From contig CALVRE010000042.1 of NCBI GenBank assembly GCA_944358455.1, forward strand, positions 299 to 64,298: DNA of 64,000 bases. Reading direction: 5' to 3'. The notes beneath the pieces were generated by a model, which saw nothing but the letters and a program-made list of their open reading frames with translations, was not told the origin of the DNA and searched no databases. The position numbers and the translations under genes were made by a program. This document shows positions 33,086 through 46,296 of this stretch, one piece after another; position 1 is the first letter of the stretch; the number at the start of each line of letters is the position of its first letter. Source of the stretch: an uncultured Bacilli bacterium (GTDB lineage Bacteria; Bacillota_I; Bacilli_A; RF39; UBA660).

Positions 33086-34225
33086 TTACCTCCATTCACT
33101 TAACCAGACGCTTGGATATCCAATCGCAGGAATTCTCAATCTTGCAACGCCTATAATATCTTTTTCATAAATGACCATTGCATCTATATCGTCGTTATTA
33201 TCACCTTTGGTTCGATAAGTATAATTTCCATCTTGAGAGTCATTTTTTTGGACAACGCGGTGAACAATAACCCGATTATCATTACGATACACCAAAACAT
33301 CTCCCACTTCTATTTCATCTTTCTCTTTATCTGTCAGCTTATCTACAATAACGACATCGCCTCTTTTAATGTTCGGACTCATCGATGGCGATACGATCGC
33401 TAAAAAGTAATATTTAAAGAAACCACTCGTTAAAAGAATGACCACTATGACCAATATCCCAAAACATGCATTCACAATCATTCTTCCAGGATGCTTTGAT
33501 TCCCTAACAAAAAACATTCGTTCTTTCTTCGTCGCCCTATAAATTAATAAACAAACGATAAAAGGAAAAACTATCTCTAATATACTGGTTAAATAATTTC
33601 CTAAGTTCGGATAAATCGGCACCATATAAATTGGCAATTCCGTCAACAAGCGAAACCAAATGACCGATTTCCAAGAAATGTGATACATTAAAAAAGTAAA
33701 CGCTATATTTTTAGCAATACTAGGTAAAATAATTAAACTAATATTATCGATGATAGCATTGATATCATGTCCAAGTGGAAATGCTCCTCTAGCATCAAAT
33801 AAAATCAAAAATAATACTAATAAAGTTAACACAATCTTTTCGTGAGATCCATTCTTATATTTCGATACCACTTCATAACGTAATAACTCTTCTGCAACAA
33901 TCACTAATATTACAGGCAAAATATTTTGAAGTATAGTCAGAAAATCCAAACTATAAACGGTTCTAGCATATCCAGTAAAAATACCTAACACATAGACAAT
34001 GACAAAATAACATATCACATAACTAATCAAACTAAAGTTAATATCTAACGTTTTTTCCGACTTATCTTTTTCAAAGCCTTTTAGCAACACTATGACAATA
34101 AAGAAGATCGTCAAAAAAACAAATCCTAACAGTTGATTCGAAATAAAACGAAACAAAAAATTATTGCAAAGAATCAAAATAATTGCAATCAATTCAATTA
34201 AAACGATTTTTTGGTACTCCCTCAT
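33086..34225 (-). CDS. Fusion protein: CPBP (CAAX/Abi-type) intramembrane metalloprotease domain plus C-terminal type I signal peptidase (S26, SipW-like)
   Basis: The N-terminal ~270 aa is polytopic with EELLRYE (EExxxR) and FLMYH (FxxxH) CPBP motifs. The C-terminus has SPSMSP (catalytic Ser box), RGDVV, HRVV and GDNN S26 boxes. Confidence 0.7.
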   Translation of the reverse strand: MREYQKIVLIELIAIILILCNNFLFRFISNQLLGFVFLTIFFIVIVLLKGFEKDKSEKTLDINFSLISYVICYFVIVYVLGIFTGYARTVYSLDFLTILQNILPVILVIVAEELLRYEVVSKYKNGSHEKIVLTLLVLFLILFDARGAFPLGHDINAIIDNISLIILPSIAKNIAFTFLMYHISWKSVIWFRLLTELPIYMVPIYPNLGNYLTSILEIVFPFIVCLLIYRATKKERMFFVRESKHPGRMIVNACFGILVIVVILLTSGFFKYYFLAIVSPSMSPNIKRGDVVIVDKLTDKEKDEIEVGDVLVYRNDNRVIVHRVVQKNDSQDGNYTYRTKGDNNDDIDAMVIYEKDIIGVARLRIPAIGYPSVWLSEWR

Positions 34226-34337
34226 TCACATCACCAATCAATATTGTCGTTACTATATTTTATATTATAATATATTCTTTTGTTTTTATCAAGAATATCT
34301 ATCACAAAATTTACTTTTTGCAATATTAAAACAAAAA

Positions 34338-34357
34338 AAGAGAGACATAACTCTCTT
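34338..34357. terminator. Bidirectional terminator after TasA-like paralog B
   Basis: AAGAGAGA-CATAA-CTCTCTT with A- and T-runs. Confidence 0.5.
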
Positions 34358-34359
34358 TT

Positions 34360-34938
34360 TTAAGCTTGAACATAAGTGATTGTTGCACCAGAACCATTAA
34401 CTGTTACATCAGCCGTAGGTAACTGAGTTGCAGTATCTTTATAGGTAACTGTTAATTTAACTGTTTTGGTTTCGTCAGCATTTAACGTATCATTTTGAGC
34501 AATAGCAGTTCCGCCATCTACATATGTTAATGTATACTCATATGAAGTTTCTACTAAAGTTTCATCTGCGTCTTTAGTGTCTCCACTTCCAGTAAATGTA
34601 GGCGTCTTAGGAGAATAAGTACCAATCTTGGCATTGATTTCTCCATCATTTACGATATCGAACGTATAACTAACAGAATCTCCTGGAGCTTTTAACACAA
34701 CACCAGTTAAAGTTACAGTAGTATTATCTAAGCTAATACTACCTTTGTCAGCAGTACCAGTTACTTCTCCTGCACTGGCATTTTCAAAGTGAACATTCCA
34801 GCTCGCATTTAAAGATTGTACAGTAGAATCTGTATTAATATTTAATACTTGTGATAATGCTGCATAACCTAGTGTTACTCCTCCTATTGCGATAATCAAC
34901 GCAGCGATCGCTATTGTTCTTAGTGTTTTGCTTTCCAT
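34360..34938 (-). CDS. TasA/camelysin (M73)-like secreted protein, paralog B
   Basis: The signal peptide ends in GYAALSQVLNINTD. VVLKAPGDSVSYTFDIVNDGEI resembles the TasA motif LKPGD..F.F.N.GSL. RBS is GGAGGA. Confidence 0.65.
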   Translation of the reverse strand: MESKTLRTIAIAALIIAIGGVTLGYAALSQVLNINTDSTVQSLNASWNVHFENASAGEVTGTADKGSISLDNTTVTLTGVVLKAPGDSVSYTFDIVNDGEINAKIGTYSPKTPTFTGSGDTKDADETLVETSYEYTLTYVDGGTAIAQNDTLNADETKTVKLTVTYKDTATQLPTADVTVNGSGATITYVQA

Positions 34939-35175
34939 ATAAACTATTTCCTCCTCACTTCTAATTTTTATAACACCACTACTATGTTATACAATCTCAT
35001 TATAAAAAAATTTTTGATAAATTTCAATACTTTTTTTACTTTTTTCGACATATTATGCATTTCTATGGTCAATAAAGCTTTAAAAATCAACGGAAATTGA
35101 TATCCAACAAAAAATTCAAAATGCTACCAAAAGTAAAAAAATTGAGCAAAATTTGAATCATAGGAAATCTTTCTT

Positions 35176-35210
35176 ATAAAAAAGAAAGAGAACCACCATT
35201 CACTCTTTCT
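35176..35210 (-). terminator. Rho-independent terminator after TasA-like paralog A
   Basis: AGAAAGAG-loop-CTCTTTCT with a T-run on the minus strand. Confidence 0.55.
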
Positions 35211-35229
35211 CTATGTGTATTACATTTAT

Positions 35230-35805
35230 TTATGCTTGTACATACGTGATAATGACACCTGATCCGTCGATATTAACATCGTTTGTAGGTTCGAAATCAC
35301 CTTTTAGTTGATATGTGATCGTCAGCTTTAAAGTTTTTCTTTCGCCCTCATTTAAAACGTCTGACACGGTAAGTGGTGTTCCATCTTCATACGTTAATAT
35401 ATACTGATAGGCATCTCTTACGATTGCTTCATCTACTTCCGATGTCTCACCAAAACCTGTGAAACTTGGATTCTTATAATCGATATTTCCGATTTTCGCA
35501 TCCAAATTTCCATCATTTACGACTTCAAATGTATATGTAACAGAATCTCCAACATTTTTTAGAATAACGCCGTTTAACGTTATGTTAGTGGCATTTAATG
35601 TTAAGATTCCTTTCTCTGCATTTCCCGTAATGATTCCATTGCTTGCGTTTTCAAAATGAATATTCCACTTTGTATCTGGCGTTTGAACATAAGAATTTGC
35701 CTCCACTTTCAATATCTGAGAAAGTGCGGCATAACTGATTGACAATGCTCCAATGGCAAGTATGAGTGCTGATACAGCAATTGTTCTTAATGTGTTCTTT
35801 TTCAT
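35230..35805 (-). CDS. TasA/camelysin (M73)-like secreted protein, paralog A
   Basis: The signal peptide ends in SYAALSQILKVEAN. VILKNVGDSVTYTFEVVNDGNL is the same TasA-like motif. The start was set at MKKNT with RBS AGGAGGG; the gene is monocistronic with its own terminator. Confidence 0.65.
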   Translation of the reverse strand: MKKNTLRTIAVSALILAIGALSISYAALSQILKVEANSYVQTPDTKWNIHFENASNGIITGNAEKGILTLNATNITLNGVILKNVGDSVTYTFEVVNDGNLDAKIGNIDYKNPSFTGFGETSEVDEAIVRDAYQYILTYEDGTPLTVSDVLNEGERKTLKLTITYQLKGDFEPTNDVNIDGSGVIITYVQA

Positions 35806-35865
35806 ATACCCTCCTAATTCTAATTTAATTGTAACCTCTTTGACGATGTTTTTCAAGATTCATTT

Positions 35866-36214: not shown

Positions 36215-38299
36215 TTATGGTATACAAGTTTTCATTTCTAATTTTTTATGTTTAATTTTAAACATCATACTACCGTTTAAATCAGTTCTATAAATCATAG
36301 AGTTAGAGAGATTTTCTAGTACTTTATCATGAGGATGACCATACCAATTGTTTTTTCCTACTGATATAATGGAATATTTTGGATGAATACTACTTATAAA
36401 TTCTTCACTGGAACTTGTCTTACTCCCGTGATGTCCCACTTTCAATATGTCTATATCCGTAAGATCATATTTTTTTAAAATATCCTCTTCTACCTCTATT
36501 CCTGCATCTCCCATGAATAGCATTTTAACTCCATTATAATCAAAATATAATACATTAGAATTATCATTTTCATTATCGTATAATTTGTGATTTAAAAAAT
36601 ATATCTTGTGCCCCTTTAAATTTAATTCTTTGATGTTTTGACAATACTCAATCCTTTTTTCGTCTAGTATTTTTATTAGTTCTTGTTCTAACTCGTTATA
36701 ACCATCTGGATTAAAAATTACTTTTTCGATCGGGAAATGGTTTACTAAATAAAACGCTTCCCCCATATGATCGAAATCGCCATGAGTGAAAAGAAGAAAA
36801 TCAAGTTTTTGAATTCCTCTCGACTTCAAATAAGGAATTAACGTATTTTTGCTGATATTGTAATCATAGTCTTCCAAATTCATTAAATTTCCCCCTGTAT
36901 CAATCAGAATATTTCCTCGATTATACGGAAGTTCCATCAAGATCGCATCTCCTTGTCCTACATCTAATACGGTTACTACCACATAGTTGCGAAAATACGG
37001 CATCATATATAAAATAGCCAGTAAAACTGGTAATAATAGCATTCTTCTTTTTCGATAATGATAGATTCCAATGATGATCCATATCAAACTAGCGATTAAT
37101 ATACCTAAAAAGACAAACGATGGTTTCATAAAGGAAATCGTGAATAAAGAATAAGAGGATAATCGTTGCGATAGCGTTTCTAAAATAGAAATTAACACGT
37201 GATAGATTTTTCCTAGTGGCGCAAATAACAAGACAAAAAAAGAAAGTGGGAATAATAAATAGGTCACGTATGGAACAAAAAACAAGTTATAAATAGGCGT
37301 TAGAAAAGTCAGTTCAAAATTATAAGTAAGAGAGATGGGAATCCCTGTCAAAAAGGCAAGCAGAGAAATCAACCATAATTTTCGAAAATATCCTTTTTGT
37401 TCTTTTAAATAACGATTGCCATAGATGAGTACAAACGATATAGTAAAACTATAAAGAAAACCCAAATGATATACATAATAAGGATTATAGAAAAGTAAAC
37501 AAGAAATAACGAACATCAACAAATAAATGGTGTCGATTTTTAAATGAACAATCTTTCGTAATGTCAAAAGATAAAATAATAAAAGTGCTCTTAAAATAGA
37601 GGGAGAAAAACCAGTTACGAATGAATAAAATAATAAAATGATACTAACGATTGCATAATTTCTCTTTTTGTCTTTCCAAAAGCGATTTAAAATGGCAAGA
37701 ATGGTCGTTGCCATAAACGTAATATGCATTCCGGAAACGGAAAATAGATGACTGATGCCATTATGCTGATAACTATCTAATACATCTTCCTTAATATCAC
37801 TGCTATCTCCTAATAATAGATATTTTAAATAATCGGCGTGTTCTTTGGTATCAAAATAATCATTGATTTTTCCTTTCCAATCGTAAAGTAACGAATGATT
37901 CTTGTTTACTAAACGAATATCGGTAGGTACTAGTTGATAATAAATTTTTTTACTCAATAAGTAGTTACGGTAATTAAATAACCCAAAGGTACGATTCGTA
38001 GATGGTAATTTCAAAGTTCCTTCCACTTCGATTTGATCTCCTACTTCATAATCGAATGGTTCATAGATTGTCATAATGACTTTTTCTTTTCCTTTTATTT
38101 CGACTGTCGTTCGATCTTCTTGATTTTTCAAGGATACGATCGTTCCGATTATTTTTATTTCTCCTTCGTGATAAGAAGAAAAAATGATTTTTCCTTTGAC
38201 CACCCAAAAAGAATATACGAATGAGACAAAAAGAAGAAAAAGATAAAATTTCTTAGATTGTAATATAATCTTTAAGTTTTTCAAATGTACTATCGCCAA
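36215..38299 (-). CDS. comEC: DNA internalization competence protein ComEC/Rec2 (with metallo-beta-lactamase domain)
   Basis: An N-terminal OB/DUF4131 region and polytopic competence domain are followed by a C-terminal MBL fold (VLDVGQGDAIL, HGDFDHMG). Confidence 0.9.
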   Translation of the reverse strand: MAIVHLKNLKIILQSKKFYLFLLFVSFVYSFWVVKGKIIFSSYHEGEIKIIGTIVSLKNQEDRTTVEIKGKEKVIMTIYEPFDYEVGDQIEVEGTLKLPSTNRTFGLFNYRNYLLSKKIYYQLVPTDIRLVNKNHSLLYDWKGKINDYFDTKEHADYLKYLLLGDSSDIKEDVLDSYQHNGISHLFSVSGMHITFMATTILAILNRFWKDKKRNYAIVSIILLFYSFVTGFSPSILRALLLFYLLTLRKIVHLKIDTIYLLMFVISCLLFYNPYYVYHLGFLYSFTISFVLIYGNRYLKEQKGYFRKLWLISLLAFLTGIPISLTYNFELTFLTPIYNLFFVPYVTYLLFPLSFFVLLFAPLGKIYHVLISILETLSQRLSSYSLFTISFMKPSFVFLGILIASLIWIIIGIYHYRKRRMLLLPVLLAILYMMPYFRNYVVVTVLDVGQGDAILMELPYNRGNILIDTGGNLMNLEDYDYNISKNTLIPYLKSRGIQKLDFLLFTHGDFDHMGEAFYLVNHFPIEKVIFNPDGYNELEQELIKILDEKRIEYCQNIKELNLKGHKIYFLNHKLYDNENDNSNVLYFDYNGVKMLFMGDAGIEVEEDILKKYDLTDIDILKVGHHGSKTSSSEEFISSIHPKYSIISVGKNNWYGHPHDKVLENLSNSMIYRTDLNGSMMFKIKHKKLEMKTCIP

Positions 38300-38822
38300 T
38301 TCCTTTTACGTTTTTTAACTCATCGATCGAATTAAAATTACCATTCTCTTGTCTATAATCGATAATTGCTTGTGCTTTTACTTCACCAATTCCTGGTAAC
38401 GTCAGCAACTCCTGTAATGTTGCTCGATTTAAAGAGATTTTGGTGTTTGTATTTTCAGCAGAAGGTTCATTCGTCTCGACATGATTTTGATCGATACAAC
38501 CATCATTTTCGATTGTGGGGCATATACATTCTTTTTCAATATATTTAATAGCTGTATTCCCTTCCTCAAACTGGCGGATTTCATCTTTTGTATAGATAAT
38601 AATTACCATTTCATCTTCTAAAAGCTTGCTTAAATTGATCATCGATGTATCCGCATCGACATTTAATCCTCCGCTTTTTTCAATTACATCTTGGACACGA
38701 CTTCCCGCCTCTAATTCATATAATCCTGGCTTTACAATAGCACCTTTGATGTCAACTTTGATGGTTGTTTGTTCATCTGTCGTAGGTTGCTCCACTGGTT
38801 TTACAGTTAGTTCCTCTTGCAC
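38253..38822 (-). CDS. comEA: ComEA DNA receptor (SLBB plus tandem HhH), missing its membrane anchor; the anchor lies upstream in the same frame (38871-38951) and is separated by an in-frame TGA
   Basis: The SLBB motif is IVKPGLYELEAGSRVQDVIEKSGG and the HhH motifs are LPGIGEVKAQAII and VKGIGDSTFEKL. The listed start is a GTG. The upstream fragment encodes MKIILSWWDQYRYKWYVLGIVVVFILS* and has the RBS AAGGAG. Confidence 0.75.
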   Translation of the reverse strand: MQEELTVKPVEQPTTDEQTTIKVDIKGAIVKPGLYELEAGSRVQDVIEKSGGLNVDADTSMINLSKLLEDEMVIIIYTKDEIRQFEEGNTAIKYIEKECICPTIENDGCIDQNHVETNEPSAENTNTKISLNRATLQELLTLPGIGEVKAQAIIDYRQENGNFNSIDELKNVKGIGDSTFEKLKDYITI

Positions 38823-39027
38823 AACCTCATCTTTTCTTTCTTCTTCCGGCCAAAGAAGAAAAACAACTCAGGATAAAATGAATACGACAACTATTCCTAA
38901 TACATACCACTTATAGCGATACTGATCCCACCATGATAAAATTATTTTCATATACTCCTTTCTATCATTTATCACCCTTCTACTAAAAATATACGCTCAT
39001 CGATCATCAATTCCTTTTTTCCATAAA

Positions 39028-39053
39028 AAAATTTATCACATTTGTGTGATAAA
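39028..39053 (-). terminator. Terminator-like 11-bp perfect inverted repeat after the SEDS gene
   Basis: AATTTATCACA-TTTG-TGTGATAAATT followed by a T-run on the minus strand. It could also serve as an operator upstream of comEA. Confidence 0.4.
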
Positions 39054-39054
39054 T

Positions 39055-40353: not shown

Positions 40354-40518
40354 ATGTATTATTACGGTGGATACCAAGGCTATGGCTGTGGTGCTCCATG
40401 TGGTTGCAACGTTGGAGGCGGCTGTGGTGCTGGATACGGTGCTGCAATCATTTTAGTACTATTTATTTTATTAGTAATTGTAATCGGTGCTCGTGCATTT
40501 GGTTCAGGAGTTCGTTAA
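40354..40518 (+). CDS. YjcZ-family small sporulation protein (Gly/Tyr/Cys-rich plus one TM helix), 54 aa
   Basis: MYYYGGYQGYGCGAPCGCNVGGGCGAGYGAAIILVLFILLVIVIGARAFGSGVR, with the strong RBS AGGAGG. It is not in the ORF track because it is under 60 aa. Confidence 0.6.
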   Translation: MYYYGGYQGYGCGAPCGCNVGGGCGAGYGAAIILVLFILLVIVIGARAFGSGVR

Positions 40519-45378: not shown

Positions 45379-46296
45379 TCAACGATTTCTTTTTTGTAAT
45401 GTTTTTGGTTTTTCTTCATCACTTACTCTTTTTTCAAAGCTTTGTAACAAATGTCGATAATAATCTTTTTCTAATTGTTGTTTTTCATCGTTCGAGACAT
45501 TTTTAATCGATTCTTCATATTGATTTTTTATTTCCGAATCAATTAGACTAACCGCCGTATCAGGATTAAAATTATGATATAATGTTTGACAAAAATTAGA
45601 ATCCTGCTTAGCAGATAAGAGTAATTCATTCAAAGTCGAATAATCTTCTGGTGCATGAATTTTTAAAAAATTAGCAATTCCATCATCCTGAAATCCTAAT
45701 TCTTTTAATGTTTTCGTCAACGCTTCTAAATCATACAATATTTTTAGATCCATTTTGGGACTACATTCTATATCTGCTTCTAGTATTTCTTCTTTCGGCT
45801 GTGAACATTCTAATAAACTAGCATTTTGATAATCACGTAAACGTTCGTGAAAAAAAGTATGTGTTTCAAGCATCGTTTGATCGTAAAACTCTTTGGTTTT
45901 CGTATGGAAATTAATACGATTCAGTTCCAAAAGCATATTACTGATGTCTTCATGATAAGAAAGTGTTTGTTCCTTCGTTAAATTAGAGGAACGAAAATCA
46001 CGTAACATATACTCGATCATAACAGAAATATCATCTAATAAATTCAAATCTTGATAGCAAGTATCAATTATCGTTTCTTTTTCTATTTTACTGATTGCAA
46101 TAATCATGGTTACTGCTATAATTTGAAGAATTAAATTAGAACTCATCCATAATATTCCAAAAGGAATTGCAACTGCGGCTAGACAACTTATGATAGTATT
46201 TATGATAATTTTAATTTTAGATCGCTCTACTTTTTTTAGATAATTGGACCAATTAGCAATAAAAATATCTTTCATCATACTAAACACCTTTTTCAA
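45379..46296 (-). CDS. Hypothetical protein (two N-terminal TM helices plus cytoplasmic domain)
   Basis: ORF only. It lies immediately downstream of smc. Confidence 0.45.
   Translation of the reverse strand: MKKVFSMMKDIFIANWSNYLKKVERSKIKIIINTIISCLAAVAIPFGILWMSSNLILQIIAVTMIIAISKIEKETIIDTCYQDLNLLDDISVMIEYMLRDFRSSNLTKEQTLSYHEDISNMLLELNRINFHTKTKEFYDQTMLETHTFFHERLRDYQNASLLECSQPKEEILEADIECSPKMDLKILYDLEALTKTLKELGFQDDGIANFLKIHAPEDYSTLNELLLSAKQDSNFCQTLYHNFNPDTAVSLIDSEIKNQYEESIKNVSNDEKQQLEKDYYRHLLQSFEKRVSDEEKPKTLQKRNR

Follow-up and report, generated by a model that had tools for sequence, protein, structure and literature searches.

Can a comEA gene whose membrane-anchor segment is cut by an in-frame TGA still provide a DNA receptor, and how did the TGA come to be there? 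The question is raised by a 64,000-nucleotide (nt) stretch of DNA (positions 299 to 64,298 of contig CALVRE010000042.1, assembly GCA_944358455.1; hereafter the window) from an uncultured gut bacterium, Bacilli/Mycoplasmatota-related and known only from metagenomes. When the minus strand was read and translated between positions 38253 and 38975, the comEA frame was found to be split by one TGA. An initial annotation, made from the letters of the window, had described this arrangement, and all of its coordinates were confirmed on the minus strand: an ATG at 38951, preceded by a ribosome binding site (RBS), opens a frame that meets TGA at 38870-38868 and then runs on to a TAA ending at 38253, with a GTG start 45 nt beyond the TGA. 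The locus is a comEA gene disrupted in this strain. The disruption very probably stems from a recent T-to-G nonsense mutation that changed Leu28 to an opal codon within the single N-terminal anchor, leaving a nascent pseudogene or a severe hypomorph.

The part ahead of the TGA has the makings of a genuine gene start. A Shine-Dalgarno-like AAAGGAG (38955-38961) lies 3 nt 5' of the ATG (38951-38949) and is the same in four aligned conspecific sequences. The ATG and the 26 codons that follow (38871-38951, direct reading) specify MKIILSWWDQYRYKWYVLGIVVVFILS, which takes the protein from its cytoplasmic N-terminus through residue 13 of the membrane anchor. This 27-residue peptide is not a chance open reading frame (ORF), since it matches the first 27 residues of the intact 232-amino-acid ComEA of conspecifics (P0122/P0123) at 100% identity. 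The TGA (38868-38870) occupies codon 28; its middle base, 38869, is G on the coding strand here and T in the intact alleles. The 3' fragment (38253-38867) continues in the same frame, beginning VVFLLWPEEERKDEVVQEE..., with 204 codons for residues 29-232 before the TAA (38255-38253). The attribution of the split gene to ComEA in the initial annotation was borne out when the two fragments were joined conceptually: Pfam SLBB, an oligomerization-type domain, covers amino acids 65-117 (38601-38759; E 5.5e-12), and Pfam HHH_3, the HhH DNA-binding domain, covers amino acids 169-231 (38259-38447; profile positions 3-65 of 65; E 2.3e-22). The GTG that opens the mechanically listed 189-amino-acid ORF (38820-38822) is the sole in-frame NTG between the TGA and the domains, and the GAGG located 2 nt 5' of it appears poorly spaced for a Shine-Dalgarno sequence.

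ComEA of Gram-positive bacteria consists of an N-terminal transmembrane segment, an oligomerization domain and an HhH DNA-binding domain; the transmembrane segment fixes the protein to the membrane's outer side, and ComEA is needed for DNA binding and uptake (PMC9747964). The C-terminal tandem helix-hairpin-helix (HhH) domain, the middle SLBB domain and the linkage to comEC are all present at the locus under study. No single ORF in this strain combines the anchor with the SLBB and HhH domains, a combination found on one polypeptide in all conspecific and related alleles. The domain order matches that of the Bacillus subtilis/Geobacillus-type protein (N-terminal transmembrane anchor, a middle domain that is SLBB here, C-terminal HhH), and the gene likewise lies directly upstream of comEC. 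It differs from the Gram-positive type in that the anchor segment is cut at codon 28 and that no comEB is found between comEA and comEC. It is a standard Gram-positive-type comEA with an ordinary nonsense lesion at the strain level, and no new mechanism is required.

The consequence of the TGA for the anchor was gauged by Kyte-Doolittle hydropathy with a 19-residue window on the joined, restart and pre-stop products. The anchor is encoded at 38850-38909 (residues 15-34, WYVLGIVVVFILS[L/stop]VVFLLW), and a strong hydrophobic 19-residue window arises only when codon 28 is read: residues 15-33 have a mean of 2.92 with Leu28 and of 2.67 with Trp28. The 27-residue peptide contains just a 13-residue uncharged run, and the 189-amino-acid restart product is devoid of a hydrophobic segment (maximum 0.84), in line with the earlier view that the helix is too short without this codon. 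The companion proposal, that reading TGA as Trp would complete the helix, held as far as hydrophobicity goes; the product would be an L28W variant, however, and not the native protein.

The identity of the codon that preceded TGA was sought in conspecific sequences. Twelve contigs assembled from other samples (ENA and Logan), 99.0-99.9% identical in nucleotide sequence to the window (L001, L002 and L032-L041), served as the comparison set for comEA polymorphism. All 12 are intact, with TTA (Leu) as codon 28, and three (L034, L036 and L037) are a single nucleotide apart from the window over the whole of comEA and the 24 nt upstream, that nucleotide being the middle base of codon 28. The proteins tell the same story. 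A search with the joined ComEA returned one 232-amino-acid match at 98% identity and many at 50-69%, all of about 200-250 residues. A 90% protein cluster was made up of eight full-length 232-residue conspecific variants and the window's own 189-amino-acid call. Leu28 is found in all nine intact conspecific proteins (97-100% identical; eight of 232 residues, while P0004 breaks off after 138), and one of them, P0123, equals the window's conceptual ComEA save for residue 28. In the nearest sister species (L004, 68% protein identity) the codon is TTC (Phe). The window and one other contig, L003, are the only carriers of TGA (2 of 14 sequences). On this comparison TTA (Leu), which the window uses more often than any other Leu codon (890 times), is the ancestral state at comEA codon 28 and TGA the derived one; as read from the alignment, the event is a T-to-G transversion (TTA to TGA) on an otherwise unchanged haplotype. 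An intact conspecific allele from which the stop is derived, as expected of a recent nonsense mutation, is thus at hand in the 12 TTA contigs, with the TTC of the outgroup beside them. The initial annotation had therefore been right in listing a recent nonsense mutation and wrong in deriving it from TGG: the check that it proposed, TGG versus TGA in related comEA genes, gave no TGG, the codon being TTA in the 12 intact conspecific contigs and TTC in L004. The case is also a warning against taking an in-frame TGA in a hydrophobic helix for a mutated Trp codon without further evidence, the population data here having given TTA. Two further scans added no conspecific sequence: exact 45-mers for either allele had no match among JGI metagenome contigs, and hence gave no added allele counts, and the contigs of representative genomes yielded no conspecific genome, the best match being 68% identical.

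Amino acid polymorphism of ComEA within the species clusters in the first 60 residues (W15G, V23L, E38G and D59N; 38777-38909, minus strand). No change within the species falls in the SLBB or HhH domain; the others are in the inter-domain linker, at residues 156 and 165.

Might a receptor initiated separately, without a signal, be the normal state in this lineage? Had relatives all carried a stop here along with a signal-less ComEA, the notion of a lesion would have collapsed; their proteins are intact and anchored. Each of 21 species-level relatives, taken from representative genomes, has an uninterrupted ComEA of 195-241 amino acids with a hydrophobic N-terminal segment. The set consists of metagenome-assembled genomes of uncultured Bacilli, "Tenericutes" or "Mollicutes", among them Ca. 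Faecisoma merdavium. Further homologues read individually have the same uninterrupted, anchored protein, and no anchor-less, separately initiated ComEA was found in any lineage among the 21 relatives and the other homologues read. Intact conspecifics have Leu at position 28, the sister species has Phe and the 21 relatives have hydrophobic residues there; none of these has a stop, and the homologous residue is never Cys, selenocysteine (Sec) or Trp. The TGA allele is best read as young and of low frequency.

An error in sequencing or assembly would likewise leave the window one base away from three alleles that otherwise match it; in that case the true base at 38869 would be T and comEA intact. 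The source, moreover, is metagenome-assembled sequence. The second TGA contig bears directly on this explanation. L003 (ENA ERZ24773300, BRZ_EA NODE_68292, 1913 nt) was found by exact look-up of the 189-amino-acid product; it has the same TGA, with three further mismatches to the window in its 1913 nt. The occurrence of the same base in two non-identical assemblies makes a one-off sequencing or consensus error unlikely. In addition, the window sits in a contig of 109.8 kb, which would imply adequate consensus depth, and the altered base (TCCT[T>G]AGTT) stands neither in a homopolymer nor in a GGC-type motif, the latter being an Illumina error motif. The weight of the second contig is reduced by its coverage, 1.46x, and by the chance that this only other TGA contig and the window have reads or a sample in common. 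An error, one of the options raised in the initial annotation, is left as a formal but quite unlikely alternative to a true mutation.

If the TGA is real, is it read as a stop? The window has a GC content of 32.8%, and NCBI places Ca. Faecisoma in Mycoplasmatota incertae sedis, which makes the organism a low-GC, wall-bearing relative of the Mollicutes. A filing beside that group, together with an AT-rich genome in which TGA stops are rare and a 12-bp hairpin that begins 4 nt after the comEA TGA, could be taken to favor programmed recoding or a non-standard code, be it selenocysteine, dedicated readthrough or UGA read as Trp as in Mycoplasmatales. The use of TGA across the window argues otherwise. 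Fifty long ORFs end in TAA (32), TAG (15) or TGA (3), and among the 18,744 sense codons of these ORFs TGG occurs 119 times and TGA never, which agrees with the earlier remark that the large genes have no internal TGA. The three TGA ends have independent signs of being true gene ends. The gene for a YlbL-like protein (PDZ plus Lon_C) reaches position 201 of 205 in the Lon_C profile before its TGA, which is followed by a hairpin and a T-run. The gene for a 736-amino-acid ABC exporter overlaps the next ABC gene, its TGA being part of a shared GTGA; this gene and the YlbL-like one had been cited in the initial annotation as cases of genuine TGA stops. The third, a 305-amino-acid gene, is followed after its TGA by a promoter-like TATAAT-like box and an RBS ahead of the ylmH ATG. 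TGA thus works as a terminator in this genome, and code 4, or any general reassignment of TGA, was rejected on the codon counts and these three verified gene ends. Like the Mycoplasmatales with their translation table 4, the organism combines low GC, a related taxonomic neighborhood and TGA as the least-used terminator; unlike them, it uses TGA to terminate and never as sense, and the ancestral residue at the comEA site is Leu, not Trp.

The TGA of the 305-amino-acid gene, at 45379-45381, had itself been considered as a second in-frame TGA, as ylmH continues in the same frame. This candidate was rejected: the TATAAT-like box and the RBS intervene, and ylmH has its own ATG.

The hairpin downstream of the comEA TGA (38835-38863, minus strand) was likewise weighed as a selenocysteine insertion sequence (SECIS) or stimulatory element. 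A stem is present, yet it is no better than shuffled sequence: its folding energy of -15.4 kcal/mol compares with a shuffle mean of -11.9 (z = -1.41), and 17 of 200 dinucleotide shuffles fold as well. It is also present in intact comEA alleles. Its arms, TTTCTTCTT and AAGAAGAAA, are Phe-Leu-Leu and Glu-Glu-Arg codons, respectively, at the boundary between membrane and cytoplasm; the hairpin arises because hydrophobic codons rich in pyrimidines give way to Glu/Lys codons rich in purines. An Rfam scan of the whole window returned only a tRNA-Pro and no match in the region of the TGA, and a 2026 Nucleic Acids Research paper on UGA-reading tRNA-Trp variants does not mention this lineage. As the stop is polymorphic within the species and occurs in no relative, the conservation expected of a recoding site is lacking, and the homologous positions hold Leu or Phe, never the Cys, Sec or Trp that such decoding would call for. 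Programmed readthrough, also offered in the initial annotation, and the other forms of recoding are therefore extremely improbable.

Leakage of an ordinary stop is a different matter from recoding, and UGA is the leakiest of the three. Passages of Belinky et al. 2021 (PMC7918605) quote 6% readthrough of UGA in a reporter in wild-type B. subtilis (Karow et al. 1998) and give Trp as the residue reported to be inserted at UGA in E. coli and Salmonella. The same paper, which finds in-frame stops to be widely documented at the population level, proposes functional low-level readthrough for them. Applied to comEA, leaky decoding by tRNA-Trp would supply enough anchored L28W protein for the gene to be down-tuned but still useful. 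The hydrophobicity retained with Trp28, the rarity of TGA as a terminator in the window and the want of a second lesion in comEA or comEC all accord with such a role. The last of these points is, however, equally expected of a mutation one substitution old. Further, the allele is rare and absent from all other species compared, no stimulatory signal accompanies the stop, and nothing indicates that a few percent of ComEA suffices. Functional readthrough therefore strikes us as unlikely. The case resembles the in-frame stops of Belinky et al. in the single premature TGA, the undamaged remainder, the occurrence in more than one sequence and the possible leakiness of UGA; it differs in that the stop is present in no other species and lies one substitution away from intact alleles. 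A related reading, in which part of the population keeps the TGA allele as a leaky "dimmer" that supplies a few percent of anchored L28W ComEA by unprogrammed readthrough, so that DNA uptake is lowered without being abolished, seems to us very improbable. If true, the allele would let a genome-reduced relative of the lineage that later reassigned UGA to Trp tune its competence by a heritable change reversible in one step.

Under the recent nonsense mutation that we favor, ribosomes would stop after a 27-residue peptide too short to span the membrane. Reinitiation at the GTG at 38822 would give a cytoplasmic ComEA with neither anchor nor signal, which could not reach the exterior of the membrane, the site where incoming DNA is bound; with ComEA out of reach of that DNA, the strain would be transformation-deficient or strongly impaired. 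Near-cognate decoding of UGA by tRNA-Trp, unprogrammed, may yield some full-length L28W ComEA, a few percent at most, and since the L28W anchor is still hydrophobic a severe hypomorph is possible instead of a null. In either event comEA function is predicted to be lost or impaired in this strain. The roughly 615 nt of untranslated message ahead of comEC might also cut comEC expression through lost translational coupling or polarity.

Apart from codon 28, comEA contains no frameshift and no other stop, and comEC (36215-38299, minus strand), directly downstream, is intact. Its 694-codon ORF encodes DUF4131, Competence and metallo-beta-lactamase (Lactamase_B) domains by Pfam and has a rounded 100% amino acid identity over 694 columns to two conspecific copies (L032 and L038), a few columns being variable. 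Because comEC is intact and nearly identical to the conspecific copies, the lesion in comEA is taken to be recent. The undamaged remainder of comEA and the state of comEC fit a very young mutation, equally well whether comEA is on its way to becoming a pseudogene, neutral or deleterious, or is a leaky allele that the strain tolerates.

Several points weigh against a recent loss-of-function mutation as the explanation. The base at 38869 is known from assemblies, not from reads. The three differences private to L003 are all transversions and, at the coverage of that contig, may be read errors; its origin in a read set separate from that of the window is unproven. With two sequences bearing the TGA allele, nothing can be said about selection. 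The loss of function is itself something that we infer, and we know of no demonstration of natural competence in this lineage.

In practical terms, the locus should be annotated as a disrupted comEA or comEA pseudogene (Leu28 to opal) and not as a signal-less ComEA of 189 amino acids; otherwise the finding matters little. For this strain we predict impaired natural transformation; most conspecifics keep an intact comEA-comEC pair.

The start of comEC is ambiguous. A TTG at 38299 gives a 47-nt overlap with comEA and adds a hydrophobic N-terminus of 32 residues, and a GTG at 38203 lies 50 nt past the comEA stop; gene callers pick one or the other, varying among conspecific contigs. An exact look-up of the window's ComEC in its 662-amino-acid form found no match on record.

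The upstream neighbor of comEA is a gene of the FtsW/RodA family. Directly 3' of its stop, a perfect 10-bp AT-rich inverted repeat (ATTTATCACA / TGTGATAAAT, loop CAAA) is followed by TTTTTT (39025-39054, minus strand). With only two G-C pairs the repeat was missed by a consensus scanner; together with the T-run it looks like an intrinsic terminator, and comEA therefore probably has its own promoter.

Farther upstream, at 40354-40518 on the plus strand, lies an ORF for a Gly/Cys/Tyr-rich protein of 54 amino acids with a C-terminal hydrophobic tail (MYYYGGYQGYGCGAPCGCNVGGGCGAGYGAAIILVLFILLVIVIG...). It scored 20.4 bits against the model for the YjcZ-family "tiny TM" (transmembrane) sporulation protein, just under the cut-off of 21.35, and a gene of the same 54-amino-acid length is called at the equivalent position in five conspecific contigs. 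On the other side of the locus, downstream of comEC, the minus-strand region 33086-35856 encodes a 379-amino-acid protein in which a SipW/archaeal-type signal peptidase I domain is confined to the C-terminal third (residues 255-375). The two genes ahead of it (34360-34938 and 35230-35856) gave no family match or a weak match to DUF11. The region may represent a SipW-plus-substrate cluster whose peptidase carries an unusual N-terminal extension.

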